64,000 nt of DNA from a virus (taxonomy: Duplodnaviria > Caudoviricetes), in IMG/VR virus record IMGVR_UViG_3300030118_003411, positions 1,037-65,036 of that record; one strand, given 5' to 3'. A program made the position numbers and the translations under genes. The notes under the pieces are model-generated. The model was given only the letters and a program-made list of their open reading frames with translations, was not told the DNA's origin and ran no database searches. Positions 1-54,273 of the stretch are shown here, piece by piece; the stretch's first letter is position 1, and each line of letters begins with the position of its first letter.

Positions 1-224
1 GCGGGAGCCTCGGGAGCCGGAGCGGGAGCCTCCGGAGCGGGAGCGGGAGCGGCGACCTTAGCCATGAGCTTCTCAAGGCGGGTGACCTTGTAGGCCTTGC
101 CCTTGATCTTAGCATTCTGGAGCCGACGAGCCAGCTCACCATGGGCCTTGACGTTACCGCCCTGAGCAGCGGTCACAAGGTCGGCACCAGAGAAAGAACG
201 GTAATCAATCTTAGCGTTAGTCAT
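1..224 (-). CDS. Early protein with Ala-Pro-Glu (APAPEAP) repeats, truncated at window edge
   Basis: Read manually: ATG at 224 after GGAGA RBS; MTNAKIDYRSFSGADLVTAAQGGNVKAHGELARRLQNAKIKGKAYKVTRLEKLMAKVAAPAPAPEAPAPAPEAP; GC-rich codons. Confidence 0.75.
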   Translation of the reverse strand, partial: MTNAKIDYRSFSGADLVTAAQGGNVKAHGELARRLQNAKIKGKAYKVTRLEKLMAKVAAPAPAPEAPAPAPEAP

Positions 225-283
225 ATTTGATCTCCAAATGACTGTTTCGATTATAGTACGTTTCAGAGTTGAAGCGCACTGTA

Positions 284-304
284 GGATATCGCAAGGCGAA
301 AAAA
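284..304 (-). promoter_or_regulatory. Early-region motif copy 1 (TTTTTTCGC-N4-CGATATCC)
   Basis: Same 17 fixed bases as the copies at 773-793 and 1017-1037; 60 nt upstream of ATG 224. Confidence 0.65.
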
Positions 305-770
305 CCCGGCGATACCCTACAGTACGCTCCAGTGATTCGGTATCGTACACTGGAGCGGGAATCGTCACTGTTACAGGGAACGTTCGAATCTGGAGATCGG
401 TCATATGAGCGGCTATCGTATGCCTTGCTCGACGTAGCTCCTCCTCTAAAACGCACTTCTGCCTACAGTAAAGATTCGGTAATCGGACAGTATATCGCTG
501 GGGCGACGGATCGCCCTTCCTGATGTACACCCCGCGCCGTTACCGGGCAGTGGCCCGTCATCGGTGACGTTCGGTTTCGATAGTCACTCGCTCCAGCCGA
601 TAGCCATGAGATAGGCATAACTAGAGCATCCATATAGCGTGGAGTGTCCTCAGTAGGGCCGCTTCTCGCCCACTACCCTTCTCGCGCCGCTATGGCTCGG
701 GCAGGCCCGTAACAGGCCAGTATACTAGGTTTTTCGGTCAATCCGTCAGGTCCGGTTTCCCGAGCCGTCA
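305..770 (-). ncRNA. Candidate large structured non-coding RNA
   Basis: No convincing ORF; many helices (694-701/759-766, 634-639/688-693, 411-418/598-605, 501-506/511-516 with UCCG loop, 325-334/348-357); begins just after motif copy 2. Confidence 0.5.
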
Positions 771-772
771 GG

Positions 773-793
773 GGATATCGCAGGGCGAAAAAA
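773..793 (-). promoter_or_regulatory. Early-region motif copy 2
   Basis: ggatatcgcagggcgaaaaaa on the + strand. Confidence 0.65.
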
Positions 794-798
794 GCAGG

Positions 799-981
799 TC
801 AGCAGGTCCGTGCGCCGCGCTGGAGCGCACCTTGTAGTTCCGTGATGCGGACCCACGTTTCGATTCCGTTCCACTCTACCTTGACCTTGCGGTCACGGGC
901 GACCTTGTGAAGCTTGCGATTCTCGCGGTCTAGACTTGACTTGGATGCGCTCAGGGTCGCGCCTTTACTTATGATTGCCAT
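799..981 (-). CDS. Early hypothetical protein (60 aa, basic)
   Basis: ORF with GGAGA RBS, preceded by motif copy 3. Confidence 0.7.
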   Translation of the reverse strand: MAIISKGATLSASKSSLDRENRKLHKVARDRKVKVEWNGIETWVRITELQGALQRGARTC

Positions 982-1016
982 TTGTTGTCTCCGTTTCGGT
1001 GTTTCGTTTCGACACT

Positions 1017-1037
1017 GGATATCGGGGAGCGAAAAAA
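1017..1037 (-). promoter_or_regulatory. Early-region motif copy 3
   Basis: ggatatcggggagcgaaaaaa on the + strand; 36 nt upstream of ATG 981. Confidence 0.65.
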
Positions 1038-1039
1038 AT

Positions 1040-1560
1040 GCCCTTCCCTGCGATTGAGACTCATTCGCAATTGAGGAGATTCTGGCTAGGGTAGAGCCTT
1101 GGGGGGTGACGGGGGGTTACGGAGGAACGGAGTGACGACGGGGCTATCTGTGTATTTGCGACCCCTAGTCGATTTTAACTTCTTGGTATACTCTTAACGA
1201 TTGAATACTGTTTATCATCTAATTTTTGTAATCTAGATGATATATCTCTAATTCTTCGATCATGTGCCTCAAGCATTTTTTCATGTAAACTAATTTTAGA
1301 ATATAGTCTAAGCATAAAACCCATGATTGCTAAAACAACAGGTCCAGCGATACTTATTAAAATAGTAATTAGATGTTCCATTTGATTCTCCCCATAGCAA
1401 ATTGTGATAAAACTCCGAAACCCCCCGCAATCCTTAGTCCATACCAACGATATCAACAGCAATAATCTATAGTTAATATACTATATTAACTATACTATAC
1501 AGATATCTATAGATACACCTTAGGTATCTCCCTCTTTTATACCCAATTATTTATTAGTGT
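1040..1560. other. Probable genome terminus / terminal-repeat junction region
   Basis: Lies between the last late gene and the first early units; abrupt GC-to-AT switch at ~1170; G-runs at 1101-1143; AT palindrome ATAGTTAATATA-C-TATATTAACTAT at 1469-1493. Confidence 0.45.
1175..1381 (-). CDS. Small membrane protein (N-terminal TM plus coiled coil)
   Basis: Start MEHLITIL after GGGGAGA RBS; one hydrophobic helix then a charged coiled coil. Confidence 0.65.
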   Translation of the reverse strand: MEHLITILISIAGPVVLAIMGFMLRLYSKISLHEKMLEAHDRRIRDISSRLQKLDDKQYSIVKSIPRS

Positions 1561-1562
1561 TA

Positions 1563-4500
1563 TCACTTCTTTTGCTTTTTCTGAAGTACATCTGCAAGCC
1601 TCTCAGAAGCCCTAGAAGGCCCGCTGCCGAGTTCTGTGGATTTAGGAGTCCCCTTGGGCCTCTGAGGTCTCTGAGGCCTCTCGAAGGATTCTCCTGACTC
1701 TCTTTGCATTTCTGCTACAGATTGTCTTATCCTATCTATCTGGGCGGGTTTTTCTGTTTTATTATATAAATCTATGTTTTCTAGCCTTTGTTCAGACATA
1801 CGTCTTTGTTCTAGAAGTCCTATACCATCTGTAGGAGCAGAGAAGTCATAGTTTTGTTTTCTATACCTTCCCCTCTTTCTTTGGTAGGGTTGAGCGTCTC
1901 TTTGGATAGAATCTAGGAATTCTTTAAGAGAAGATCCTTCGTCTATCGCCTCAAGCTCTTCAAAGATTCTTACTGGAATACCAAGGGGCGATTTATTAAC
2001 AGGACCATCTAAAAGTGCCAGTTTAGCATATTCAGCGGATATTTCTGCAAACTCTTTTTCAGAACGACCCGTAATAAGCTCTGCGGTTGTTTTAGAAGCT
2101 CTTGCTACTTTGTCTACATACTTTGGAAGTGCGCTTAAACCGGGCGCACCAAAGGGGTTAAAAGTATCTGTGGGGTCTACACCAAGAGCGGTTTGGATAG
2201 AATTGATTACTAATCCAAGGAATCCATTGAAACGACCAAGAAGGGGAACACCAGCAGCAGCTTTGCTAATATACCTGATTGGTTCCTTTTCAACTTCCTT
2301 CATAATATCTTCCGCATCTCTCCCTGCTAACCACTCTCGGAATGTACGGTTAACAAGATCAGCTACAGCGTATATTGTCAAGGTTCCGACTAGATACTTA
2401 AGGGTGGTTCTTCCACCAAAGTTTGCAATTGTTCCGTACTGGTATGACTGAACCCAGCTAAACAACTTGTTTAACAAACGACCAACAGTAGTCCTACCTA
2501 CAGTTCCTGTTTGAATAGATAGGCCCATAGGTTCAGAAACATCTCTAAGAGTAACCAGTTGCTCAGACATGTAAATAAATCTATCTACTGCATCTTCAAG
2601 AACATCAGGATCTACGTCTGTTTTAGATTTGTTTGTCCTAGCTTGTACATACAGATCTCTAAGTTTAGCAAAATCAATTCTTCCATTTTTAGCCTCAATG
2701 GCTTTCAGAGCAGAATTAAGAGAATCAATCATTTCTCTATTAAGAAGACCATACTGCATAAAAGGAACAACGTCTTGATAATTAAGTCCTTCTTTTCTAG
2801 CCAAGTCCTTAAGGAACTTAATTAGTTCTTTTTGTGCTTTTCTATCTGTAGAAGCCTTTTGTTCTAGATTTTTAATCTTATTAGCATTTTCTGGCTCTTC
2901 CATCTTGTCTAGTAGTTTAATTAATCTACCGCTCTCAAGATGTTTTTGAATCATTCTTGTGTATTTGGTAATTGCCATCATTCGGTTGGCATTAGTTACT
3001 TGATGTAGTGATCCTACTTGGTTTGCAAAATAAGCAAATCTGCCAGCCAGTTCTTGAGGTATTCTAGAATTTGAATCTAGAACAGATTTAGGCAATCCTG
3101 CTCCTTCGGGACCAAACCAGTTTTGGGCAGAAGAAAGCGAAGTTTCTACTGTTTGATCCATTTCCGACAAGAATCTGACAGTCATGTTTCTGTTTAGAAT
3201 ATCAAAAGCAAATATTGTATCTGCTACTTCCATTCTATCAGCAGCCCTATCATACCTTAAATCACCGAAAACATTTCTTAAAAGAGTTATGGTATTGCTT
3301 ATAATCTTTGCTGGATTAGCGGAAAGTATTCCAGAGTTAGCTGTAATTGCTAATGTTTCTGTTCCCGCAGCAATTCCGTACCCCCAAGCAGTTGATCCTT
3401 GAACAAGGTTACTAGCTACGGTATACAGTTGAGTATTTGTGGGATTATACTTATCATCAATTCTAGAAAGTTTTCCAGAATACATGCTATACATTTCTTC
3501 TATTTTATCCATTCCAGCATTAAGAGACGAAGTAAGCATTTCTTCTAGTTCAGGAGAATGTCTTGCTTTTGAAATCTCTTCCAATCCCAACTGCCTAGAT
3601 TGTCGTAAAAACTCATACATTCTAATGCCCTTGGTTCCAAGCATTCGATCTAGCTCCTGTTGAGCAAGAAGTTCAAACAAACGTCCATGTAAGAAATCTA
3701 TAGTACTTAGAGCAGAGTTAGTTTGTAATATCTCTTTTAGTTCAGGAAACTCCATAACTTCTTCGGGAGTAATGTTTTGAATACGGACTCCAACACTTCT
3801 TCCCTCTGGATCACCGAGTCCTAAAATAGGCTTATAGTTTTTTGCAGAAATAACACTATTACTGTATATTCCTTGCCCAAGTTTCCAACTTAATAATTCT
3901 GACATCTCTGCCATGATAATATCTTGATTTTTTGTTGACTTAAGAAAATCAATCATATTAGGAGTATAATTAGAAGCATCTCCATCAACGGCCTTCATGT
4001 ATTTAGCTCTATCAGAAACAGATAGCTCTTCTAGCTTTTTAGGCATTTTAACAATAACGTAATCATCGCCATCTTTAATCAAGAACCAATCTCTGCCAAT
4101 TCTGCCATGAAGTCTTTCATTTGCCTTTAGACTATCTAATGGATTTGTTCTGGTTCTAATTTTTTCATTCATAGCAATTGTTTCTGCATCAAAGTTAGTA
4201 TCGATAACTCTTTCAAGAGAAGATCTTAGGTTTGATACAGGATTGCCGGTTCTATCTGTTCCCTGTCCAAATAAAGACGAAGGAGCATCGCCTTCTTTAA
4301 TATCAACAGGAAGCCACCCTAAAGCGTAAGCAATACTCTTATGGATAGTTTCTCTATTTTTAATTGTGTTCCTTCTTGCTTTTGTCATCATTTCAATAGC
4401 ATCTGAATGACTTGCTACCTTGTTAGGATCTAAAGTAATTGGCACATAAGTCTCTGGATCAAGGGGAGCTTTCTTAGATCCAGAAATAAAGTCTTTCCAT

Positions 4501-7500
4501 CCTGTTTCTTCTTGTAGCTCAAATACCTTTTTAAACATAAGAGTAAGTGTTTTGTTATATTTTACAGACGCTTCAAATATTTCTTCAACAGCATCATTTA
4601 TCTTATTCGCAGGAACTCCTGATTCTGTGAGAAGTTCTTTGATTTCGTTTTTATCAATAGCTTTCTTAGAGGCTCTTGAATTAAAGATATAAGACATAAT
4701 TGAATTATATGAATTATATCTGTTAGATATTCTTAGAAGCCTAGCGTTTTCAGTCATTAAAATGCCAATAAATCTATCAGCTTTACTCTTAGAAGCCATC
4801 CAAGTTCTAATTGGTCTCTTACCCGCTCCCACAATATGTCCTGTGTGGAACCGAGTATCGTCTACAAAACGACTTAGCTTTTGCATAAGAGGAATATAAG
4901 AATACATAGTATCCTTTAATCCTGTACCATATTGTGCGAAAAGCATGACATTTCTCATGGTGTTTCTCCACCAATTTTGAGAATCAATATCAGAGGCACC
5001 AAATACAGTTCCTATCCATCCTTGCTCTCTAACAACTCTGTGATTGTTTCCGTCTTTTTTGTTAAACCATCTTCTAACAGCACCTTTGGCTTTTCCGTCA
5101 AACTTACCTGCTTGCTCTTCGGCCCTCTTCATTTTCTCTGCTTCTGATTCAAACTTACGTCCGCCAGTTAATGCATCGTATTCTTCTGGTTGAAGAGGTT
5201 CTTGGAATCTAGGCTTCTTATTGTCTTTATTAAACTTCTTGTTTGTTTTCTTTGCTGCTAGTTCGTAGATTTGCTTATCGGTTTTAACACTTAATAGATC
5301 TGCTATAGTTTTTGTTTCCATAGCTTCTATCTTTTGTCGTTGTTTGTCGTTCTTAAGTCTAATAGAATCAACTTGTTTCCAGAAATAAACAACAGCTTCA
5401 TCTCCATGATTTGCTGAGTTCTTTTTCATAATTTCTGAAGCCTGTAGTAGATATCCTCCTACAAGCTTAGAAACAGCTTGGAAACTATGCATAGATCTTG
5501 GGAACAAGGAAATTAACTTACTAACGAGTTGGATATCAGCACCTAAGCTGTTTAAAAATTCATTATCAGATAAAATAAAAGCATCTACTTGATCTTGAAC
5601 AGACATATCGTCGGTATCGTGAGCATGGGCTTCTCCCTCTTCTACTTCGGGACCATCTGCTGCATCTCGGCCATTATCAACAACCTGCTCATCTTCATCA
5701 TCAATAGGCTTGGTATTTCCTTCTTCATCAGGAACAGCAGCATCTTCATCTACCTTAACTCCGTCAGTTTCTACTTTCCCTGTAGCGGAGTGAGTTTCAT
5801 TTACGGTATTTCTTCTTGATACCTCAGCAGGCAAAACAATTGTAGCGTCTTCGCCATCGATATGAATTACAGCATCAATGCCATGCTGATCATTTAAATA
5901 ACTCATAATAAAATCATACTCATCTTGCAAGGTCTTAACAAAGCCAAGCTTTCGTAGTGTATCAAGTCCATTTTTAATAGTAACCTTGAGGATGAAAGTA
6001 TCGATTCCCTCTACTAGTAATAAATCATCAGGAATTTGATCAATAAGGTCTTCTGCTTTTGTTATAGGCTTTGTTGCAACAACAGGATTCTTTAGAATAA
6101 CCTCTGATGTTTTAATTACAGTTTCTTTGTTTTGGTCTGCTTCTTTTCGAACAGCTTCTGCTTTAGGCTTACTAGTAGTAGCGACTGTAGCTTTCTTGGT
6201 TGGTTTCTTGCTTGTAGAAGCCTCATGAACTGTAAAGGTTGTAGGCTCTCCCGTTCTAATTGTTTTAATAGATCTAGTATTAATAACGGTTGTTTTAGAA
6301 TCATTAGAGCTTACAGTAGTTTCTTTTGCTTTTTCTTCTCGTTGTTTATTAATCTTAGAAACACCAGTAGAAGCCTTGCTCTCTTCTAAGTCTGCTTTTG
6401 TTTGGCTTTCGTTTATGTCAATTTTCTCAACAGATGCTTGAAGACCGTCTTGTCTCATTTGAGCTTCTGCTTTTTCTAAATCGTATGGCTTAGATTCTGG
6501 AACAAGCTCCGCAACTGTTTCTCCATCAATATCAATTGTACCCTCTTCTACAAACTTTTGTTTACCTGATTCTCTAATTGAATCAATAGTACCTAATTTA
6601 TCTCCTTGAGTTTTCTTTAATGTTTTATACTGAGGGAATTTCTTTTTAAATGCTCTATTCAAAGCAGTTGGGGTAGCTGCGATTCTGTCTTTTAATTCAC
6701 TAACAATTTTTGTTTGCTCAACTAGAGATGCAGCATCTTCTTCAGATAGAACCTGTCCCTTTGCCTTTAACTTAGATCTTTTCTTTTGAATACGTTCTTT
6801 TTCTTTTTTAGCTCTGTTGTATATTTTTTCATTAATTACAAAATCCCACTCTTGTAGTAGAAGGAATTTTTCTTCGTCTGTTAACCTACCAGCTTTATGC
6901 ATAGAATCAATTCTGTTCTTAGCAGCGGTAGAAACCTCAAGACCTCTCATTGTTCCAGACTCAACGTCTGTCATTCTCATTGACATTGAACCCATTGCTT
7001 CTGCCGCCTCTCTAACACCAGCAGATTCAAATTCTAAAGATCTGTATTTAGTTTCGCCGCCCTCTGTAAATTGTCCTTTTTCTTCTCTAAATCTAGATCT
7101 AGCTAAAGATGCTCCTTTTCCTGCTAAGAAAGAAAGAAGCTGCTTTGGACCTTCTGTTTTATCTGATTTAGCGGTAATCTTTCCATCCATTACCTGAGCA
7201 ATAATCTCACCGGCAGCGTCTTCTGCATCTTGTAGATTTTTTACTACGCCATTAATTGATTTAATTAATGCATCATATACACTTGGATTTCCCTTGCTAT
7301 CAGTATGACTTACAAACGAAACAACATCAACATTTCCTGAATCATCAACAACAAGGCTTTCTGGCAGCTTCTTTGATTTAGACTGAGTACTGACTGTTCG
7401 TCTCATTGTAGATTTATCTGCTGCTTCTCCAATTTGATTTGTTACCGCTTCGGCTGTATTAGTAATGTTATTAGATACAGCTTCTACAGCGGCTTCTGGG

Positions 7501-10500
7501 GTAATGTTATCAAGGTTCTCAATAGTATTTAATGTTTTTTCTGTAACCAGTTCTTTTACTGCGCTTAGAATAGTCTTAGTTTTTGTTTGAAGTTTATTAT
7601 CAATAACAACTAAACTTCCATTTAATACCATTTCTTCTAACTTAGAAGCGGGAAGAGAAGCAATGTCTTCGTGTCCTTCTGCAAGTCTAAGAGAAGACTT
7701 AGGATCAAAGAGAACTTTTTCTTTGTTCCTGAGTTTATTGAATTTTTCAATTCTTGCAGCAGCTTCAGGATCCATTGCAGGAGGAACAATATTATCTCTG
7801 TTTTCTGGAGCAACAGCTTTTCTAATTACTTTTTCAGTTCTACTATAACTACCATCATTTGAAATAGCGGATTTAACTTGTGTAGACTCAAATACAATAT
7901 ATTCTCGTCCCTCTTCAATAATTAATCCATCATATCCTTGTTCTTTTAGAATATCTTGAACAGTCTTAGCAACTTTTTTTGCTTTTTCTATTCTCGATTC
8001 AGGAATATTTCCTTCTAATAACTCAAGAGTTAAAAGGTATTCTGATTCAGTAAAACTCATTTCTGGTTTATTTGGATCAAAAAATTGGCTTATTTCTTCA
8101 TAAAAAGCCTCATTTGATTTTAATATAAATGGTCGTTGCATACTAAGATATACAGGAATTACTCTTCCATACTTTCTTGCTCCACTACCAGCGTAAGTAT
8201 TGGCCTCGTTTGCTTGACTAGTAAAATAAATTCCCTTTCCATAAAATCCAACATCAGTTGTATTTATGTTTGTATCGAAGTAACTAAAGTCTTCTTTAGC
8301 GGTAGTTCCGTGAAATAGTAACATTGGCGTTCCATCTAAATGAGATGCTTTGGATTTTTGGAACCACTCTTTAAAGTTTTCGTTTTGTCTTAAATCGACA
8401 TCTCTTCCTTTTTCAATTCTTGCCAATCTATCTCTTAAATGTAGATATTGTCTAGCGGTCTCAATAGCACTTGCAGGAACATCTGACATAATTCCTTGGT
8501 TAATAGCTCCTTCTCCGCCTTTTTTATAGTTTAATAGTGTGGGATACTTCATTCTCTCCTGTAAGAAAAGAGCATTGGATAGTGTACCGTCTATAAAATC
8601 ACCATAGTCGAGCATATCGGTTAGGGGGTGTCCTCTAAGTTCTGATCCTAAATCAATAGAATTTTCAAAAGCTATTTGTAGACCTTTTGCTACACCTCGT
8701 CTTTCAAAGTTAACTTCTCGAAGAACATCCATATTAGCTTCTAATGAGTTTCCTTTTTGTGTTCTCGATGCTACAATAATCTCAGAATCTATTCTAAGAG
8801 GATCTATTACAGATCTAATCTGTGCAGCCTGTGAAATTAAATCTGAAAGTTTAGTTGGCTTTCCATTTTTATCTACATATAAAACATACTCAAACATTTC
8901 AAAGGGATCAAGATACCTTACGGTTAGATAAGTAGCAAGATCTTTTCCAGATTGAGTTCCTTGATCTAATTCATTAATATAAGATGTAATAGTATTTTGA
9001 AAAGTTTCTACATCTGTTTTGTTATCTAAAAATAGTTTCTTTTGAGAACCCGGCCCACTACTTAGAAAATCATTTATATAGAATATAAACTTAGTAAAAA
9101 CATCCCCTGTGGTATTTTCTAGTTGACGAAGTTTCTCCCTTTGTTTTATAGTAGGAGTTCCATCAGAATCTTCTCTAAAAATCTTTACTCTTTCTTCTGC
9201 TCCTCTGCTGTGAGATTCAATATCATCTCTAATAGCTTTTGATAAAGGATAGTCTGTTAATGCTCTTTTAAGTTTATTCTTAATAACAGTACCGCTTAGA
9301 GATTGATAAGTATCTAATTCTAGAGAAGCTAAATAATCTTCTTCGATGCTCTCTCTAAGCTTTTCCATAATCTCCATTTGTCTTTCTTGTCTTGCGTTAA
9401 GATCTCTATAACCACCATCAAGTTCTTCTTGGGTTGATCTAATAACGTCAAGTACATTTTGGACAAGTGTTCTTGCTTTTTCTACAACAAAGGAGTAGAT
9501 ACTATCAATTAATTCTAGTATTCTATATTGAGAACCCGCATCTAATCCCATTGTTATGTTATGGGCTTCATCAAAGACTCCAGCCCGATCATATCTATCA
9601 GTAAGTACTATCCTAGTGAGTTCAGCAAAAAACTCATATGGATCGCTCATAGCGTGTGCAACTTGTCGCTCATCGGCTCCTAATGCTCTAAGTATGTTTT
9701 TAAATACTTCGACTTCATCAGGAGTCATATTATTATATTCATCAAGAATTTTTTTCTGTAAATGAATAGGAAGATCTTCATGAAAAACGTGCCCAGCAAT
9801 TTCATGCAAGAATACACCAACTTGTTCAACACTTGATGCTTTTTTAATCTCATTAAGGTTTAAAATTAATTCTACAGATCCGTCTTCGCCTCTGGATTCT
9901 ACTTCCGCAAAAGTACCTAACAAATCTTCTTGTAGTTCTTGAGAGCTTCTAGAAAGACCAGATGTTTCGTCTGCTGGTCTTGTTACAATAAGATCTCCAG
10001 TTTCTTCTCGATACCTAATATTTCTAAGATATCTTGGATTTTGATTTGCTAATATTGATCGTAAAACTAAAGCAGCATCTGGTTTCAATACACCCATACC
10101 AACCAAAGTATTAAAAAGCTCTAATACTTTTGCATGTTCAGGACTAAGGCCAGCAAAGAATTTATCGTCTTGCATAGCTCTACTAGCTTTCTTTCTTTCT
10201 GCCTTAGACATCCTGCTTTTTCTTTTTGAGGCTTTATTATTTTTAACTTTAGCATCTATTCTTGCTTTTTCTTCAGTATTTAAAGGAGCGTATGCTTTTC
10301 GTGCGCCTTGTCTCTTATCTGTTGTTTTAACGGATTCAGTAGAAGGTACTTCTCTTTCTTTCATTCCTAATCTACGTCTAAACATATTTTCTTGTGCTAC
10401 TAGTTTATTAAGAAATGCTCTATCTTCTTCAGATAATTCTTTTCCACTTTTCTTAACTTTGTTTTCAATAGCTTTAATTACACGACCTAAAGATTCTGCA

Positions 10501-12302
10501 AGTTTTTTCATTTTAGCAGCGTCTTTTGTTCTCATGACTTCTCTAAATTGAATACCAGCTTCCATTTCAGCATCCATCATAGCAAAACGTCCGGTTTCAG
10601 GATCTTGTCTTGCTACGGCACTTTCTGTCATGCGGTCTAGTTTAACTTCTTTTTGATCTGGAGAAACTCTTGTTTTTGTTTCAGCATCAACTCTTGGATC
10701 ATCTTCGGTTTTAGTATTCCTAACCCTTTCTCTAGCCTCTGCATTATTAGCTGCTCGGTTAGCATTCATTTCTTCAAAAAGAGGTCTATTAGAAACAAAC
10801 CTAGATCCAACTCCTAGTCCAGCTTCATCAGTGATAGCAAGGGCAGAAGTAATTTGTTGGTTTGATTTATTATTTGATTTTTTCATTGCTTTTGCGATAG
10901 CTGGAATACTTCCCAATGCTCCACCTAAAACAAATCCTAAAGACGTTGCTAGGGCAAATCTAGCGTAGTCAAATTCTTTTTCTCTTTCGGTGGTAGCACC
11001 TAAAATTCTGGCCTCTTCAATCATTGCTTTTTGTGATAAGATATCTGACAATCCGCCTTGAAGTGCGCCCGCTGTTCCTAGTTTAAGGAATGAGTCAGCA
11101 ATTTGTTTGAACCCGGCTTTCTCTACTCTAAAGCCAGCAGCCGCATATCGAGCAAAAGCACTTCCTTTTCCTGCATTGTGAAATAACTTAGCTACTCTTG
11201 TTCCTAATGATTTTCTAAATGTTTCTCTTGCTGAGTTTCTAAGAGCTTGTTTTCCTACTCCCTTTAGTGTTTGTGTTACTAGACCCTTACCTACGCCTTT
11301 AATAAGCCCAGCCAATCCTCCAAGTCCTAAAGTAGCGGCCATATCTGGGTCGTTATAAATCATAGAAGGAAGAGAATAAATCATCATTCCTGTTTGACCT
11401 ACTGCACTATTTTCATAATACGACTCAAGTGTGCTTTCTAAAGACGATCTAGTAACTGCTCTTCCTACTAAATAGTCTGCTGTTCTTTTGTTTTTAGCTT
11501 TTGTTAGCTCTTCAATATTAAAACCATTTCGATTTAAGACACTTAATAACCTTGCATTGTCTCCATAATTATCTTCAAAATATTTAATTGAATCAAAAGA
11601 TCCGTCAATTTTTGATATATAATTAGGATCCGTTTCAGCATAGTTTAAAGAATCTTGAATATCTCTGTAAGGAGATCCTCCGTTAACAAAATTACCAATA
11701 GCTCCGGCGTTATCAAAAAGTTGTTTAAACTTAGAATAAATATCCCCTAAGTATAGAGTATTAAATCTTCCCTCCATATCTTTATCTACGGGTCTTTCTG
11801 TTCCTGTAGAGGGAATATTAGCATAAGGATCTCCAATCTCACCATCTACAAGAATTCCTCGTCTTAAAGCATATCCTGCTGTATCGTTTCCAACCCAACC
11901 AGACCATCCATCTAAAGCTCCTTGAAGCAAGAAATTGCTAGATGCTTCCATAAAACCTAGAATGTCTCCCATCCACTCAAAACCGTATTGTGCTGCTTCG
12001 CCATAACCAAGACCTTTTGCTACATTAGACATTGTTTGTCCATATAAATCAAGACGTTTGGGCTGTCGTTGATAACTAGCTTCATCTTTTAAAGCCTCAG
12101 GACTTACATCTGGCATCATTTCATTGGGAATAAGATTTGTACCAAAAATTGAATCATAAATTCCTGTAGCTCCTAGATAGCTTAAATTAAAGTTTCTTTC
12201 TTTTTCTTTTCTAAAGAAATAATCGATTTCGTGTTCTTTATGCCTATCGAAATCATGATTTAAAAAATATCGTCTAGGAATATCTTGGTTTGTAAAAGGC
12301 AT
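1563..12302 (-). CDS. Giant polyvalent internal virion (ejectosome, gp16-like) protein with zincin peptidase, ADP-ribosyltransferase and sigma-like domains
   Basis: 3579 aa; last of the internal virion genes; HEIAGH...EFFAE zincin motif; NFKEWF..FHGT..GIYFTS..GYDGLII..EYIVFESTQVKSA ART-PolyVal motifs; Gly/Ala hydrophobic helices. Confidence 0.8.
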   Translation of the reverse strand: MPFTNQDIPRRYFLNHDFDRHKEHEIDYFFRKEKERNFNLSYLGATGIYDSIFGTNLIPNEMMPDVSPEALKDEASYQRQPKRLDLYGQTMSNVAKGLGYGEAAQYGFEWMGDILGFMEASSNFLLQGALDGWSGWVGNDTAGYALRRGILVDGEIGDPYANIPSTGTERPVDKDMEGRFNTLYLGDIYSKFKQLFDNAGAIGNFVNGGSPYRDIQDSLNYAETDPNYISKIDGSFDSIKYFEDNYGDNARLLSVLNRNGFNIEELTKAKNKRTADYLVGRAVTRSSLESTLESYYENSAVGQTGMMIYSLPSMIYNDPDMAATLGLGGLAGLIKGVGKGLVTQTLKGVGKQALRNSARETFRKSLGTRVAKLFHNAGKGSAFARYAAAGFRVEKAGFKQIADSFLKLGTAGALQGGLSDILSQKAMIEEARILGATTEREKEFDYARFALATSLGFVLGGALGSIPAIAKAMKKSNNKSNQQITSALAITDEAGLGVGSRFVSNRPLFEEMNANRAANNAEARERVRNTKTEDDPRVDAETKTRVSPDQKEVKLDRMTESAVARQDPETGRFAMMDAEMEAGIQFREVMRTKDAAKMKKLAESLGRVIKAIENKVKKSGKELSEEDRAFLNKLVAQENMFRRRLGMKEREVPSTESVKTTDKRQGARKAYAPLNTEEKARIDAKVKNNKASKRKSRMSKAERKKASRAMQDDKFFAGLSPEHAKVLELFNTLVGMGVLKPDAALVLRSILANQNPRYLRNIRYREETGDLIVTRPADETSGLSRSSQELQEDLLGTFAEVESRGEDGSVELILNLNEIKKASSVEQVGVFLHEIAGHVFHEDLPIHLQKKILDEYNNMTPDEVEVFKNILRALGADERQVAHAMSDPYEFFAELTRIVLTDRYDRAGVFDEAHNITMGLDAGSQYRILELIDSIYSFVVEKARTLVQNVLDVIRSTQEELDGGYRDLNARQERQMEIMEKLRESIEEDYLASLELDTYQSLSGTVIKNKLKRALTDYPLSKAIRDDIESHSRGAEERVKIFREDSDGTPTIKQREKLRQLENTTGDVFTKFIFYINDFLSSGPGSQKKLFLDNKTDVETFQNTITSYINELDQGTQSGKDLATYLTVRYLDPFEMFEYVLYVDKNGKPTKLSDLISQAAQIRSVIDPLRIDSEIIVASRTQKGNSLEANMDVLREVNFERRGVAKGLQIAFENSIDLGSELRGHPLTDMLDYGDFIDGTLSNALFLQERMKYPTLLNYKKGGEGAINQGIMSDVPASAIETARQYLHLRDRLARIEKGRDVDLRQNENFKEWFQKSKASHLDGTPMLLFHGTTAKEDFSYFDTNINTTDVGFYGKGIYFTSQANEANTYAGSGARKYGRVIPVYLSMQRPFILKSNEAFYEEISQFFDPNKPEMSFTESEYLLTLELLEGNIPESRIEKAKKVAKTVQDILKEQGYDGLIIEEGREYIVFESTQVKSAISNDGSYSRTEKVIRKAVAPENRDNIVPPAMDPEAAARIEKFNKLRNKEKVLFDPKSSLRLAEGHEDIASLPASKLEEMVLNGSLVVIDNKLQTKTKTILSAVKELVTEKTLNTIENLDNITPEAAVEAVSNNITNTAEAVTNQIGEAADKSTMRRTVSTQSKSKKLPESLVVDDSGNVDVVSFVSHTDSKGNPSVYDALIKSINGVVKNLQDAEDAAGEIIAQVMDGKITAKSDKTEGPKQLLSFLAGKGASLARSRFREEKGQFTEGGETKYRSLEFESAGVREAAEAMGSMSMRMTDVESGTMRGLEVSTAAKNRIDSMHKAGRLTDEEKFLLLQEWDFVINEKIYNRAKKEKERIQKKRSKLKAKGQVLSEEDAASLVEQTKIVSELKDRIAATPTALNRAFKKKFPQYKTLKKTQGDKLGTIDSIRESGKQKFVEEGTIDIDGETVAELVPESKPYDLEKAEAQMRQDGLQASVEKIDINESQTKADLEESKASTGVSKINKQREEKAKETTVSSNDSKTTVINTRSIKTIRTGEPTTFTVHEASTSKKPTKKATVATTSKPKAEAVRKEADQNKETVIKTSEVILKNPVVATKPITKAEDLIDQIPDDLLLVEGIDTFILKVTIKNGLDTLRKLGFVKTLQDEYDFIMSYLNDQHGIDAVIHIDGEDATIVLPAEVSRRNTVNETHSATGKVETDGVKVDEDAAVPDEEGNTKPIDDEDEQVVDNGRDAADGPEVEEGEAHAHDTDDMSVQDQVDAFILSDNEFLNSLGADIQLVSKLISLFPRSMHSFQAVSKLVGGYLLQASEIMKKNSANHGDEAVVYFWKQVDSIRLKNDKQRQKIEAMETKTIADLLSVKTDKQIYELAAKKTNKKFNKDNKKPRFQEPLQPEEYDALTGGRKFESEAEKMKRAEEQAGKFDGKAKGAVRRWFNKKDGNNHRVVREQGWIGTVFGASDIDSQNWWRNTMRNVMLFAQYGTGLKDTMYSYIPLMQKLSRFVDDTRFHTGHIVGAGKRPIRTWMASKSKADRFIGILMTENARLLRISNRYNSYNSIMSYIFNSRASKKAIDKNEIKELLTESGVPANKINDAVEEIFEASVKYNKTLTLMFKKVFELQEETGWKDFISGSKKAPLDPETYVPITLDPNKVASHSDAIEMMTKARRNTIKNRETIHKSIAYALGWLPVDIKEGDAPSSLFGQGTDRTGNPVSNLRSSLERVIDTNFDAETIAMNEKIRTRTNPLDSLKANERLHGRIGRDWFLIKDGDDYVIVKMPKKLEELSVSDRAKYMKAVDGDASNYTPNMIDFLKSTKNQDIIMAEMSELLSWKLGQGIYSNSVISAKNYKPILGLGDPEGRSVGVRIQNITPEEVMEFPELKEILQTNSALSTIDFLHGRLFELLAQQELDRMLGTKGIRMYEFLRQSRQLGLEEISKARHSPELEEMLTSSLNAGMDKIEEMYSMYSGKLSRIDDKYNPTNTQLYTVASNLVQGSTAWGYGIAAGTETLAITANSGILSANPAKIISNTITLLRNVFGDLRYDRAADRMEVADTIFAFDILNRNMTVRFLSEMDQTVETSLSSAQNWFGPEGAGLPKSVLDSNSRIPQELAGRFAYFANQVGSLHQVTNANRMMAITKYTRMIQKHLESGRLIKLLDKMEEPENANKIKNLEQKASTDRKAQKELIKFLKDLARKEGLNYQDVVPFMQYGLLNREMIDSLNSALKAIEAKNGRIDFAKLRDLYVQARTNKSKTDVDPDVLEDAVDRFIYMSEQLVTLRDVSEPMGLSIQTGTVGRTTVGRLLNKLFSWVQSYQYGTIANFGGRTTLKYLVGTLTIYAVADLVNRTFREWLAGRDAEDIMKEVEKEPIRYISKAAAGVPLLGRFNGFLGLVINSIQTALGVDPTDTFNPFGAPGLSALPKYVDKVARASKTTAELITGRSEKEFAEISAEYAKLALLDGPVNKSPLGIPVRIFEELEAIDEGSSLKEFLDSIQRDAQPYQRKRGRYRKQNYDFSAPTDGIGLLEQRRMSEQRLENIDLYNKTEKPAQIDRIRQSVAEMQRESGESFERPQRPQRPKGTPKSTELGSGPSRASERLADVLQKKQKK

Positions 12303-54193: not shown

Positions 54194-54273
54194 TCCTCAG
54201 GGCAGGATTCGAACCTGCGACGTGACGGCGATTATAAGTCACCCGCTACAACGCCAACGCAGCTTGCCTGAGG
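54194..54273 (-). tRNA. Atypical tRNA-Ile(UAU)
   Basis: Acceptor CCTCAGG/CCTGAGG-A; anticodon arm GGTGA-CTTATAA-TCGCC; T arm GCAGG-TTCGAAT-CCTGC; unusual D arm. Confidence 0.8.

Follow-up and report, generated by a model that had tools for sequence, protein, structure and literature searches.

A candidate structured noncoding RNA of about 500 nt at the putative head of the early region of a marine T7-like phage

Results

Layout and setting of the locus

The window analysed here comprises 64,000 nt of IMGVR_UViG_3300030118_003411 (positions 1,037 to 65,036 of that record; Caudoviricetes), and its source genome is that of an uncultured marine T7-like podophage, belonging to a lineage known only from marine metagenomes. 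The minus strand carries all ORFs of at least 150 aa and all four tRNA genes, and PHROGs matches across the genome include a T7-type RNA polymerase (E 2e-146), a primase/helicase, a DNA polymerase and a head-tail adaptor (connector protein). Related loci are grouped in what follows as clade 1, which consists of two distinct sequences (the window and L007, about 75-77% identical), and clade 2 (L009, L012 and L008). Read in the gene sense, the features of the locus, including the predicted parts of the RNA, are as follows:

1017..1037, minus strand: motif copy 3, upstream of the 60-aa ORF; conserved in L007
799..981, minus strand: basic ORF of 60 aa, restricted to clade 1 and lying outside the RNA
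773..798, minus strand: motif copy 2, CCTGC-T6-CGCCCTG-CGATATCC, directly after the stop of the 60-aa ORF; 5' border of the fold
749..766, minus strand: 5' GNRA hairpin (helix 2; six pairs, three changed on both sides, 100% paired)
704..744, minus strand: small hairpin (744-728), AAAAACCUAGUAUACUGG (734-717) and a further hairpin (718-704)
485..703, minus strand: central multi-branched domain (helices 5-10 and 13-16; all cells paired)
598..605, minus strand: long-range partner GGCUAUCG, which pairs with CGAUAGCC (418-411)
359..477, minus strand: 3' long-stem domain of ~120 nt (helices 17-22)
326..356, minus strand: perfect hairpin of 9-10 bp (CGCUCCAGUG ... CACUGGAGCG)
276..325, minus strand: hairpin of ~22 bp, interrupted by a 2x2 internal loop and capped by a U6 apical loop; gene A starts ~50 nt further on
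284-304, minus strand: motif copy 1, inside the 22-bp hairpin
1..224, minus strand: start of the GC-rich gene A (179 aa), the first early gene of sizeable length

The folded region sits inside an island of 56-62% GC in a genome of 36% GC; the GC content of window positions 1-1000 is 0.56, as against 0.30-0.48 elsewhere. This island is found at the same position in L006, L007, L009/L011 and L012, and its junction with AT-rich sequence is spanned by contigs from other metagenome runs (X2 record 4 and X3 record 7); since related metagenomic phages carry it in the same place, it is no assembly chimera. A conserved C-rich block and an AT-rich palindrome adjoin the island. None of the sequencing runs listed for the region is on record as RNA, and the contigs matched to it derive from DNA.

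The two ends of the contig do not overlap, and its gene order fits a T7-type early leader position; in clade 2, nothing coding lies upstream of the folded element. The initial annotation had placed the RNA among the first transcripts, and a position at the head of the early region, read from gene order only, agrees with this; by gene order and by analogy with T7, we infer that the ORF-free element at the head of the early gene block would be the first part to be transcribed. The adjoining 3579-aa protein matches ART-PolyVal (E 2e-22), PARP weakly and one PHROG of unknown function. We considered N4-type hairpin promoters served by a giant virion RNA polymerase and set them aside, as no polymerase family matched the 3579-aa protein in a profile search that a very divergent polymerase could escape.

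The motif that flanks the element in three copies gives three matches against 0.16 expected. The 13-nt core of copy 2, CCTGCTTTTTTCG, is identical in the window, L009 and L012, with 14 nt in common with L008, and ACCTGCTTTTTTC is kept in L007.

Coding potential of the region and of its neighbours

The region had been described as GC-rich and devoid of a credible ORF, and this description stands. The longest minus-strand ORF inside it has 56 aa (633..463), the plus-strand ORFs that overlap it have 84 and 56 aa, and none of these is conserved, because L007 differs from the region by indels of 1, 1, 3, 1, 2, 1 and 1 nt. Substitutions sorted by position modulo 3 number 34/39/38 in the region, compared with 29/19/61 by codon position in gene A; frame-breaking indels together with flat codon-position statistics thus exclude a protein, and no conserved small ORF is available to account for the region.

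The 60-aa ORF has the same length in L007, with 37 of 61 positions identical (stop included) and substitutions of 18/16/23 by codon position. Gene A, the remainder of which lies to the left of the window (L001:721-1260), matched nothing in Pfam or PHROG; inspection of the alignment suggests that its C-terminal stretch reads like a helix-turn-helix. An alignment search with gene A across viral contigs and genome contigs gave no match, and a pattern built on its start recovered two already-known contigs among the viral contigs and none among the genome contigs. An apparent gene A match in L005, from the viral contigs, proved to be a proline/alanine-rich low-complexity stretch of a giant protein.

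Database and signal searches

Searches with Rfam 15, whose families include RNase P RNA, tmRNA, 6S, group I/II introns, GOLLD and ROOL, as well as HEARO, OLE, raiA, pRNA and the small ribozymes, returned only chance-level matches for window positions 1-3000 at E up to 10, four tRNAs outside the region for the whole window at gathering thresholds, and no match for the corresponding regions of L007, L008, L009 and L012 (E up to 1) or for L001 1-2200. A mir-3718 match on the motif-1 hairpin was discarded (23 bits, against a gathering score of 78). In the islands of all loci ARAGORN reported neither tRNA nor tmRNA, blastn of window positions 1-1200 against 50,697 phage records gave no match, and a limited search of the literature returned no description of such an RNA. 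A manA-like RNA is present in L009 and was not found in this genome.

Pattern searches of viral contigs yielded candidates that we attribute to chance: three loci that matched the motif and nothing else, and 17 loci that matched a T-run followed by GATAGCC, of which two were known contigs and the other 15 were missed by covariance model R1 (described below). Relatives recognised through their RNA polymerase (L015-L018) are contigs without a gene A homologue, the motif words or a comparable GC island upstream of the polymerase gene.

A scan of positions 1-1700 for sigma-70 promoters and terminators gave three promoter-like and two terminator-like sites, with 1.4 and 1.5 expected; none of the promoter-like sites falls within the island, and of the two terminator-like sites, both weak, only that at 817-800 is on the minus strand. 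No convincing early promoter or terminator was recognised in the island, and the motif is unlike a sigma-70 promoter. Exact and one-mismatch k-mers drawn from 21 intergenic stretches comprised A-rich and ribosome-site words only, with no phage-polymerase promoter among them; TACTATAATCGAAACAG has a single occurrence. Two further words recur: TCGAAAC is enriched in the island, which holds four of the genome's eight minus-strand sites, and four of the genome's 14 minus-strand GATAT[CA]C sites lie at window positions 290-1023.

Thermodynamic folding

On the minus strand, positions 305-770 have a predicted minimum free energy of -185.7, against -161.5 +/- 5.8 in shuffles (z -4.16), and none of 100 dinucleotide shuffles folds as well; for the plus strand z is -1.82, with 4 of 100 shuffles as good. 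The homologous sequences behave alike, with gene-sense and antisense z of -6.09 and -4.15 in L007 and of -5.98 and -4.47 in L009, again with no shuffle in 100 as good on the sense strand of either. The three folds of single sequences and the two of alignments all favour the gene sense, by 15-28 kcal/mol.

Taken with the comparative data below, these folds predict an RNA of about 25 helices, and the initial proposal of a large structured noncoding element is upheld, in that folding goes beyond chance and Rfam holds no match. Its extent has been revised: the ~450 nt first delimited at 305..770 become ~766 to ~273, so as to take in the hairpin that carries motif copy 1. The individual helices of the initial annotation are all present in the window sequence at the coordinates given: its local helices form 8/8, 6/6, 5/5, 6/6 and 10/10 pairs, and its long-range and alternative helices 6/6, 8/8, 5/5 and 8/8; a helix suggested at 653-659 forms five of seven pairs in the register 653-659/670-676.

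Covariation within clade 1

The initial annotation had also called for a covariation test on homologues, which turns out positive in both clades. In clade 1, RNAalifold predicts 145 pairs, of which 21 are compensated on both sides and none is broken, the last figure being inflated here as in clade 2, since the structures were fitted to the very sequences tested, only two and three distinct ones respectively. The consensus energy is -181.4, compared with -106.3 +/- 7.0 in 200 column shuffles (z -10.7), and the 21 compensated pairs compare with 6.1 +/- 2.2 (maximum 12) in the same number of shuffles. With two long-range helices included, 152 of 152 pairs are kept in L007 and 23 are changed on both sides, a count that none of 500 shuffles reaches and that falls to 0-2 when partners are slid by 1-3 columns. 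Control alignments of the window and L007 behave differently: gene A, at a GC content of 0.61, gives z +0.5 with 4 compensated pairs against 6.6 expected, the region of the 60-aa ORF gives z -1.4 with 3 against 3.1 expected, and the C-terminus of the giant gene gives z -1.4. Runs of 18, 19, 21 and 27 nt are identical between the window and L007 on a background of 77%.

Compensatory changes are spread along the predicted molecule. The loop of the 5' hairpin is GAAA in the window and GGAA in L007; this local GNRA hairpin takes the place of the helix first proposed at 694-701/759-766, which retains only 4/8 pairs in L007 and has been dropped. In the adjacent segment, helix 4 shows one compensatory and one one-sided change, and AAAAACCUAGUAUACUGG is an 18-nt run identical to L007 that contains the 8-nt palindrome AGUAUACU (728-721). 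The central domain includes a hairpin at 587-564 (GTGAC/GTCAC), another at 516-501 (GGGCGA-UCCG-UCGCCC) and a 27-nt block (648-622) identical in L007; its compensatory changes number two in helix 13, three in helix 16 and one each in helices 5, 7, 8, 10 and 15. As regards the minus-strand tetraloops to which attention had been drawn, UCCG and GAAA are both present, with the UNCG loop not conserved.

In the 3' domain, 477-459 pairs with 376-359 as the outer stem; the domain also has a GGAG/CUCC helix and, at its apex, the hairpin GGC-AUACGAUA-GCC (424-411), whose loop, ACGAUAGCC, can pair with GGCUAUCG ~180 nt upstream. Beside GGCUAUCG, AUGCC (618-614) can pair with GGCAU (424-420) and so crosses the 598-605/418-411 helix. 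Both of these long-range helices, which had been picked out by the initial annotation, are complete (8/8 and 5/5 pairs) in the window and in L007, with one compensatory change each, whilst a third that it listed, 390-395/591-596, is not kept (4/6 pairs), nor is the switch that it envisaged through 350-357/589-596 (6/8 pairs in L007). The crossing helices may be alternatives instead of a pseudoknot, because a trivial GCC/GGC core is common to both and a linker of 1 nt separates them on one side. The 326..356 hairpin neither supports nor opposes the structure, because it is invariant in L007.

The 22-bp hairpin (helix 25) has 20 pairs, five changed on both sides and three on one side, and is 100% paired. 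All three differences in X2 record 1 (at 277, 280 and 321) fall within it and keep its pairing, those at 280 and 321 together replacing a U-A pair by C-G. A further metagenome contig, X8, differs from the window within 366-375. With about two helical turns, an internal loop and a place upstream of a gene, helix 25 has the hairpin features of a T7-type processing site, and by that analogy we propose the 276..325 hairpin as a candidate site of double-strand RNA processing.

As Watson-Crick covariation is strand-symmetric, the antisense strand too scores far beyond shuffles (z -7.8 in clade 1 and -8.0 in clade 2). Within conserved helices, G-U exceed A-C cells by 31 to 18, in a weak test made up of eight non-independent comparisons; over all predicted pairs the figures are 53 and 51, with no bias.

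Clade 2 and comparison between clades

In clade 2, 142 pairs are predicted, with 94% of cells paired and 28 pairs changed on both sides; slid partners give 3-5 compensated pairs, and none of 500 shuffles reaches 28. The alignment fold has z -12.2 in the sense orientation, compared with the antisense value of -8.0 given above. Fourteen pairs with changes on both sides fall in helices 11-16, which make up the clade 2 match of the 3' domain (A5 columns 277-400).

Both clades have in common the words CCTGCTTTTTTCG, TACGATAGCCG and the complement of the latter, GGCTATCG, together with a GGAG(G)/C(C)UCC helix round the apical hairpin. The 11-nt word TACGATAGCCG, from the 3' domain, is found in the window and in L009, with 10 nt of it in L012, and the words GGCTATCG / CGATAGCC are present in L009 and L012 too. 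Alignment of the 3' domain between clades is poor; moreover, the covariance model R1, built on the 3' domain of clade 2, finds its own three sequences and neither the window nor L007, and the 8-mers common to both clades are not collinear, so that the overall architecture is not strictly conserved. A generic need for structure explains this turnover no less well than does a precise three-dimensional fold.

Discussion

The comparative data show a conserved fold, a conserved position and an absence both of coding and of any Rfam match, and we read the minus strand from ~766 to ~273 as a real noncoding RNA element of ~500 nt whose fold is kept by selection, very likely a new structured RNA in what would be the earliest transcript. 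Its strand, transcription, ends, processing and function are here deduced from sequence, and the data neither favour nor disfavour the decoy, anti-defence and ribozyme roles suggested by the initial annotation. To the explanation as a whole, with the release of the RNA described next, we give a probability of roughly 0.6. In the model that we favour, the 22-bp hairpin, standing directly before the ribosome site of gene A, would most likely be cut by a double-strand-specific RNase, in a manner analogous to the cuts at RNase III sites between the early genes of T7, and such a cut would release the folded RNA as a discrete, stable early RNA able to work without translation. That it works in trans, upon some host or phage factor, is a guess to which we give somewhat less than even odds; that it matters only in cis, while being made, seems to us a less likely prospect. 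More speculatively, and with appreciably lower odds again, the RNA could be a ‘first-strike’ effector that does without translation, transcribed from the kilobase of DNA that enters first, when there is as yet no phage protein: it would fold into a defined particle, perhaps a multimer formed through its conserved palindromic loops in the manner of the ornate phage RNAs, and would disarm a host defence or RNA-binding factor or reprogramme the host RNA polymerase that has to pull in the rest of the genome.

The most serious rival, doubtful in our estimation and still deserving real weight, is a purely cis-acting leader, the fold of which would matter during synthesis, or whilst attached to the gene A message, by shielding the transcript from Rho or nucleases, blocking backtracking of the polymerase during genome pull-in, or controlling the translation of gene A. 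The place of the element, after the head of the early region and ahead of the first sizeable gene, would suit such a leader, as would an architecture that turns over fast between clades with helices kept within each, which is what might be expected if selection sees ‘foldedness’; the runs of 18 to 27 nt identical in L007, and a loop and distant complement conserved across clades, exceed what generic foldedness would need. As to entry, T7 gp16 is believed, according to a review, to clamp the incoming genome at around 850 bp (PMC8954989). In our element G at least equals C almost throughout, the excess of C over G being at most 10-12% (78-nt windows) as against up to 24% in gene A, which makes it a poor Rho loading site and so is in keeping with a shielding role, although no Rho or antitermination signal was identified. 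The remainder of the T7 genome, past the clamped portion, is pulled in by transcription. For translational control, the conserved GAUCUCCA (window 397-390) is complementary to the gene A ribosome site, UGGAGAUC, in the window, but in L007 this complementarity shrinks to a trivial GGAGA:UCUCC.

An element acting at the level of DNA, in which inverted repeats would work in single-stranded or extruded form (to stop ejection, to signal packaging or replication, or as palindromes bound by protein), is in our view highly improbable. The strand symmetry of covariation, the good antisense scores, the weakness of the G-U versus A-C test and the recurrent GATATC-like palindromic words would all be compatible with it, and the adjoining C-rich block and AT-rich palindrome could mark a genome end; set against this are irregular helices with bulges, G-U pairs and multi-branch loops, helices 8, 11 and 12 that span 160-190 nt, which is not a cruciform geometry, the energetic preference for the gene-sense strand, and the fact that T7-like DNA enters the cell double-stranded. 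Still smaller is the weight that we allow a functionless GC-rich spacer whose structure is a by-product of composition or of a small sample. There are only five distinct sequences, GC-rich DNA folds readily and fitted structures lean towards pairing, but the equally GC-rich gene A has fewer compensated pairs than its shuffles, slid partners give 0-2 and 3-5 compensated pairs where the true registers give 23 and 28, and not one dinucleotide shuffle folds as well in any of the three sequences. A missed protein gene, be it a small ORF, a recoded gene or gene A itself extended N-terminally from the in-frame ATG at 405-403, is scarcely credible: the gene A frame is indeed open upstream to 530 (ORF 3..530), and one frame of the minus strand is interrupted by just two stops, each of them TAG, yet indels of 1 nt and 2 nt interrupt every candidate frame in L007, substitutions have no codon periodicity, and on inspection the translations resemble off-frame GC-rich sequence.

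The structured RNA that we favour bears comparison with several known systems, among them the early leader of T7, in which promoters A1-A3 lie about 500-750 bp from the left end and site R0.3 just before gene 0.3. In both cases, here as judged from gene order, several hundred untranslated nt separate the head of the early region from the first early gene; here a ~22-bp hairpin with an internal loop stands directly before the first gene's ribosome site, and three upstream motif copies find a counterpart in the three tandem early promoters of T7. The T7 leader is not, to our knowledge, a covariation-supported, globally folded RNA, whereas some 25 helices and long-range pairings are predicted here, within a GC island of a genome otherwise rich in AT; our motif, moreover, does not resemble a sigma-70 promoter, and processing is proposed by analogy.

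Large ornate RNAs of the GOLLD/ROOL type were reportedly treated by Weinberg et al. in 2017 (PMC5737381). They resemble our candidate in their hundreds of nt, many helices, carriage by phages and a function unknown at discovery, and also in conserved palindromic or self-complementary single-stranded segments, here AGUAUACU, which could mediate RNA-RNA contacts. Where GOLLD and ROOL are found next to tRNAs in prophages, our element would open the early region of a lytic T7-like phage, and Rfam gave no match to either family at E up to 10. That such RNAs are often found in phages and prophages is set out in a recent study (10.1101/2024.12.08.627333 / PMC12286853).

Its length, its high GC content and its lack of ORFs, in a genome rich in AT, give our element the signature on which structured-RNA surveys rely when they look through AT-rich genomes for long intergenic regions of high GC content (PMC6429828, PMC8723152, PMC11109978). 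It differs in that gene A, which codes for a protein, belongs to the island too, so that GC richness alone does not mark an RNA; none of the survey classes, as far as they are in Rfam 15, matches here.

The put RNAs of phage HK022 are cis-acting RNAs of about 70 nt with two stem-loops, which lie just downstream of early promoters and make the host RNA polymerase resistant to termination. Like them, our candidate would be a structured RNA, independent of protein, at the very start of early transcripts, and an action on the host polymerase would be conceivable by analogy; it is much longer, at about 500 nt, with no downstream terminators identified, and we know of no similarity in sequence or structure between the two. 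The pRNA of phi29, of about 170 nt, belongs to the protein-primed phi29-like phages and assembles through loop-loop pairing. It too is a structured RNA of a podophage, encoded near a genome end, made early and working as RNA, as ours may be, with the difference that our Rfam search found no pRNA match; nor do we know of any need for RNA in T7-like packaging.

Few large structured RNAs have strong comparative support, and several of those borne by phages are still unexplained. The present candidate has an unusually informative address, in a GC island, presumably first in a T7-like order of transcription and flanked by a repeated motif and a processing-like hairpin, and it offers, whichever way it acts, a defined target of 500 nt for probing, cryo-EM and metatranscriptome mapping. 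Should it act in trans, it would provide an early phage function that needs no translation; should it act in cis, it would bear on how transcription-driven genome entry is protected. And if the notion of a first-strike effector were to prove true, it would add a functional class to those known among phage RNAs, with the GC island serving this marine T7-like lineage as a dedicated ‘RNA-first’ module for entry.

Phage lineage and GC-rich island

The ORF-free stretch near the left end of the window is a ~500-nt noncoding element, whose base-pairing is under selection and whose position is conserved within a small marine lineage of T7-like phages. The virus record that carries it (L001; a single record of 65,036 bp, of which the window is bases 1037-65036) has all ORFs of at least 150 aa and all four tRNA genes on the minus strand; a T7-type RNA polymerase is accompanied by PHROG profile matches to primase/helicase, DNA polymerase, ribonucleotide reductase, head-tail adaptor (connector protein) and tail protein. 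The polymerase has no match above 28% identity among 50,697 deposited phage records, and on this sequence comparison we regard the phage as a deep-branching, uncultured T7-like podophage. One tRNA call, tRNA-Ile(tat) (54194-54273, minus; 80 nt), reaches 30.9 bits in Rfam (gathering score 29), well under its three neighbours.

Features referred to in the text (window coordinates; the L001 prefix denotes record coordinates, A5 the clade 2 alignment)
59408-56952, minus: T7-type single-subunit RNA polymerase (PHROG profile, E 2e-146)
12302..1563, minus: giant protein, 3579 aa, last large gene on the coding strand
1090-1133, minus: C-rich block, first in the island as read on the minus strand
1017-1037: motif copy 3
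981..799, minus: 60-aa ORF
773-798: motif copy 2
305-770: ORF-free stretch (conserved fold ~766-273, minus)
284-304: motif copy 1, the U6-loop hairpin module in our phage (A5 columns 105-147 in clade 2)
1-224 plus L001:721-1260, minus: gene A, 179 aa, GC 0.61, as GC-rich as the RNA
Left of the window, after gene A: hairpin-plus-T8 terminator (read by eye from the sequence), then small genes

The single recognised domain of the giant protein is ART-PolyVal, the ADP-ribosyltransferase of 'polyvalent' proteins (residues 1323-1485, E 2e-22); profile searches detected no RNA polymerase domain in it. It closes the structural block and is probably a 'polyvalent' protein of the virion interior that is ejected. 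An unrelated GC-rich viral contig (L005) encodes a protein of comparable giant size that carries PAPE-type repeats.

By 1-kb windows, GC is 30-48% across the genome and 56% in window 1-1000; in 100-nt steps, the rise covers genome positions ~600-2200, with peaks up to 0.72. The repeated motif (T6-7 CG-N6-CGATATCC on the minus strand) has exactly three copies genome-wide, against 0.16 expected. Promoter and terminator scans and word searches, covering window 1-1700 and the intergenic stretches, returned nothing assignable to the element.

Several smaller signals lie in and around the island. The C-rich, G-poor block at the AT/GC junction (GCCCCG..GTCAC..CGTTCC...CACCCCC..TACCCCCC; C minus G up to +32% in 78-nt windows) is near-invariant in four relatives (ours, L007, L009 and L012), and could be a genome terminus mark, a packaging signal or a Rho loading site. 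The same four keep a hairpin (UUGAGA-N5-UCUCAA, with UUGCGA in the window; 1040-1075, minus) ~20 nt upstream of motif copy 3, which could be an operator or promoter element. Directly after the giant gene, an AT-rich spacer (1440-1560, 24% GC) holds many TATAG words and a perfect 13-nt palindrome (1468-1480/1482-1494) that recurs in L006 and L012. The word TCGAAAC, possibly an element of a promoter or of an initiation signal, has four minus-strand copies in the 1-kb island (at 250, 580, 863 and 1012) and only four in the other 64 kb; a related word, GCGTCGAAATCGGATAGC, sits in a spacer (36722-36557) upstream of a 447-aa ORF. Downstream of the gene A terminator, CACACTCATCAAACCAC-like words are directly repeated at L001:560-660, and at L001 ~470-480 a small ORF contains 10 consecutive N.

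The island in related loci

Related loci were found by a metagenome search with an alignment of gene A homologues and a viral-contig search with the C-terminus of the giant protein, the collections searched yielding five distinct sequences of the element. L006 is 99.8% identical to our phage over 3180 nt, and L007, which with ours forms clade 1, spans the entire island at ~75% identity over 1952 nt; clade 2 comprises L009 and L011 (99.6% identical to each other), L012 and the short contigs L008 and L010. All of the longer loci run from an AT-rich giant gene through a block of 55-65% GC to gene A, and L009 continues for six further kilobases of small early-type ORFs. Moreover, contigs from four other sequencing runs (four studies) match window 200-1200, two of them spanning the GC/AT junction. 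Given this shared layout and the junction-spanning contigs, we reject an assembly artefact as the origin of the island. Among the small early genes of L009 there is also a weak match to the manA RNA motif (7516-7718, plus; 37.3 bits, E 2e-6, under the gathering score of 55.2), of which no counterpart was found in our genome.

Folding and covariation

On the minus strand, 305-770 folds at -185.7 kcal/mol, against -161.5 +/- 5.8 for dinucleotide shuffles (z -4.16; 0/100 as good). In clade 1 (alignment A4: window 800-262, minus, with L007:5433-5965; 77% identical columns), RNAalifold gives 145 pairs, with 21 two-sided changes that keep pairing, 12-13 one-sided changes through G-U and none broken. 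Because this structure is fitted to the same data, we ran 200 column shuffles within conservation classes: consensus energy was -181.4 against -106.3 +/- 7.0 (z -10.7), and compensated pairs numbered 21 against 6.1 +/- 2.2 (maximum 12). With two long-range helices added, every cell is paired across 152 pairs, 23 of them with two-sided changes; sliding the partners by 1-3 columns leaves 0-2, and 0/500 shuffles reach 23. Clade 2 (L009, L012 and L008; A5) gives 142 pairs with 94% of cells paired and 28 two-sided changes, compared with 3-5 when slid and 0/500 shuffles reaching 28. The covariation that the initial annotation had proposed to look for among homologues is thus present in both clades (23/152 and 28/142). 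Best supported in clade 2 is a long-stem domain of ~120 nt (A5 columns 277-400; helices 11-16, 14 compensated pairs); the two or three long helices immediately ahead of gene A have support as well.

The same procedure, applied to our phage and L007, was negative for the neighbours: gene A (555 columns, GC 0.61, 76% identical) gave z +0.5 with 4 compensated pairs against 6.6 expected, motif 3 plus the 60-aa ORF z -1.4 with 3 against 3.1, and the end of the giant gene z -1.4 with 7 against 8.7. GC content thus does not account for the signal, which is confined to the ORF-free stretch.

All of the helices initially listed are found in the window sequence, and comparison with L007 separates them. 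Those at 564-568/583-587 (two compensatory changes) and 325-334/348-357 (invariant) are kept, as are long-range 411-418/598-605 (8/8 pairs) and 420-424/614-618 (5/5), with one compensatory change each. At 501-506/511-516 the helix survives with three compensatory changes and its UCCG loop is lost; 634-639/688-693 is weak (5/6 pairs), as is the 653-659 helix in the register examined. The pairings 694-701/759-766 (4/8) and 390-395/591-596 (4/6) and the proposed switch 350-357/589-596 (6/8) do not hold up, the 5' arm of the first forming in both phages a local GNRA-loop hairpin (helix 2; three compensatory changes). The two kept long-range helices cross each other. Since each partner also forms a local hairpin, the GCC/GGC core that they have in common is trivial; what is non-trivial is the pairing of UAUCG, 3' of the first hairpin, with the 3'-domain apical loop CGAUA. 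Both L009 and L012 also contain the words GGCTATCG and CGATAGCC. Just upstream of gene A in clade 2, segments GGGUAUAUCUAA, UUAGAUAUACCC, GGGUGUAUCUAA and UAGAUAUGC allow two mutually exclusive pairings (two hairpins or a three-way junction; L009:5609-5727, L012:6167-6295, L008:300-422), a possible switch.

Relation between the clades

The element takes the same position in both clades, and both have the GC island, the 13-nt word CCTGCTTTTTTCG, a hairpin module with a U6-rich loop closed by GUAUCG/CGAUAC-type arms, and the apical-loop word TACGATAGCCG beside a GGAG(G)/C(C)UCC helix. The shared words are not collinear, and a covariance model built on the 3' domain of clade 2 did not detect clade 1; the clades are related in core and remodelled in overall architecture. 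In line with the first suggestion of a novel RNA, Rfam 15 contains no family that matches, and we found no description of such an RNA in open-access literature.

Coding potential and neighbouring genes

The initial reading that the stretch lacks a credible ORF is borne out by indels between our phage and L007 (1, 1, 3, 1, 2, 1 and 1 nt) and by substitutions spread evenly over position mod 3 (34/39/38, against 29/19/61 by codon position in gene A), which together rule out a protein gene. The gene A frame is open upstream to 530 in the window, with an ATG at 405-403, and is broken in L007. The 60-aa ORF, absent from clade 2 loci, is equally long in L007 (37/61 positions identical; weak periodicity, 18/16/23), and is probably a real, loosely constrained gene. 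Gene A itself encodes a linker of PAPE/APAPE repeats and a C-terminal stretch resembling a helix-turn-helix motif; no Pfam or PHROG family matches it, and a search of 5.8 billion database proteins gave only five relatives (E <= 0.001, with its own cluster counted). A-ending codons are the ones read by the phage tRNAs, so that the host may exceed the phage in GC, with the first genes perhaps adapted to host composition.

Strand and mode of action

Placement on the minus strand is suggestive, not decisive: the long ORFs and tRNA genes lie there, folding energies are lower both in single sequences and in alignments (z of -1.82 for the plus strand of 305-770; sense against antisense, -6.09 and -4.15 in L007, -5.98 and -4.47 in L009, and -12.2 and -8.0 in clade 2 column shuffles), and G-U exceeds A-C in conserved helices (31 against 18 cells; 53 against 51 over all predicted pairs). 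Since early genes follow the entering genome end in T7-like phages, we infer that the element is an RNA of the gene strand and part of the first transcript. In T7, transcription pulls in the genome beyond the part that enters first. According to a review, gp16 of T7 is believed to hold the incoming genome at ~850 bp (PMC8954989).

Just before the gene A ribosome site lies a 22-bp hairpin (325-276) with five compensatory changes, whose pairs are kept by three population variants in close relatives. RNase III sites lie between the early genes of T7, and the hairpin is similarly placed; from this likeness and its conservation, we suggest that the folded RNA is probably cut free there. Invariant stretches of 18-27 nt and the pairing of distant loops favour a specific partner, and action in trans; fast remodelling between clades and a G-rich, Rho-unfriendly composition favour a role in cis, as a protected leader.
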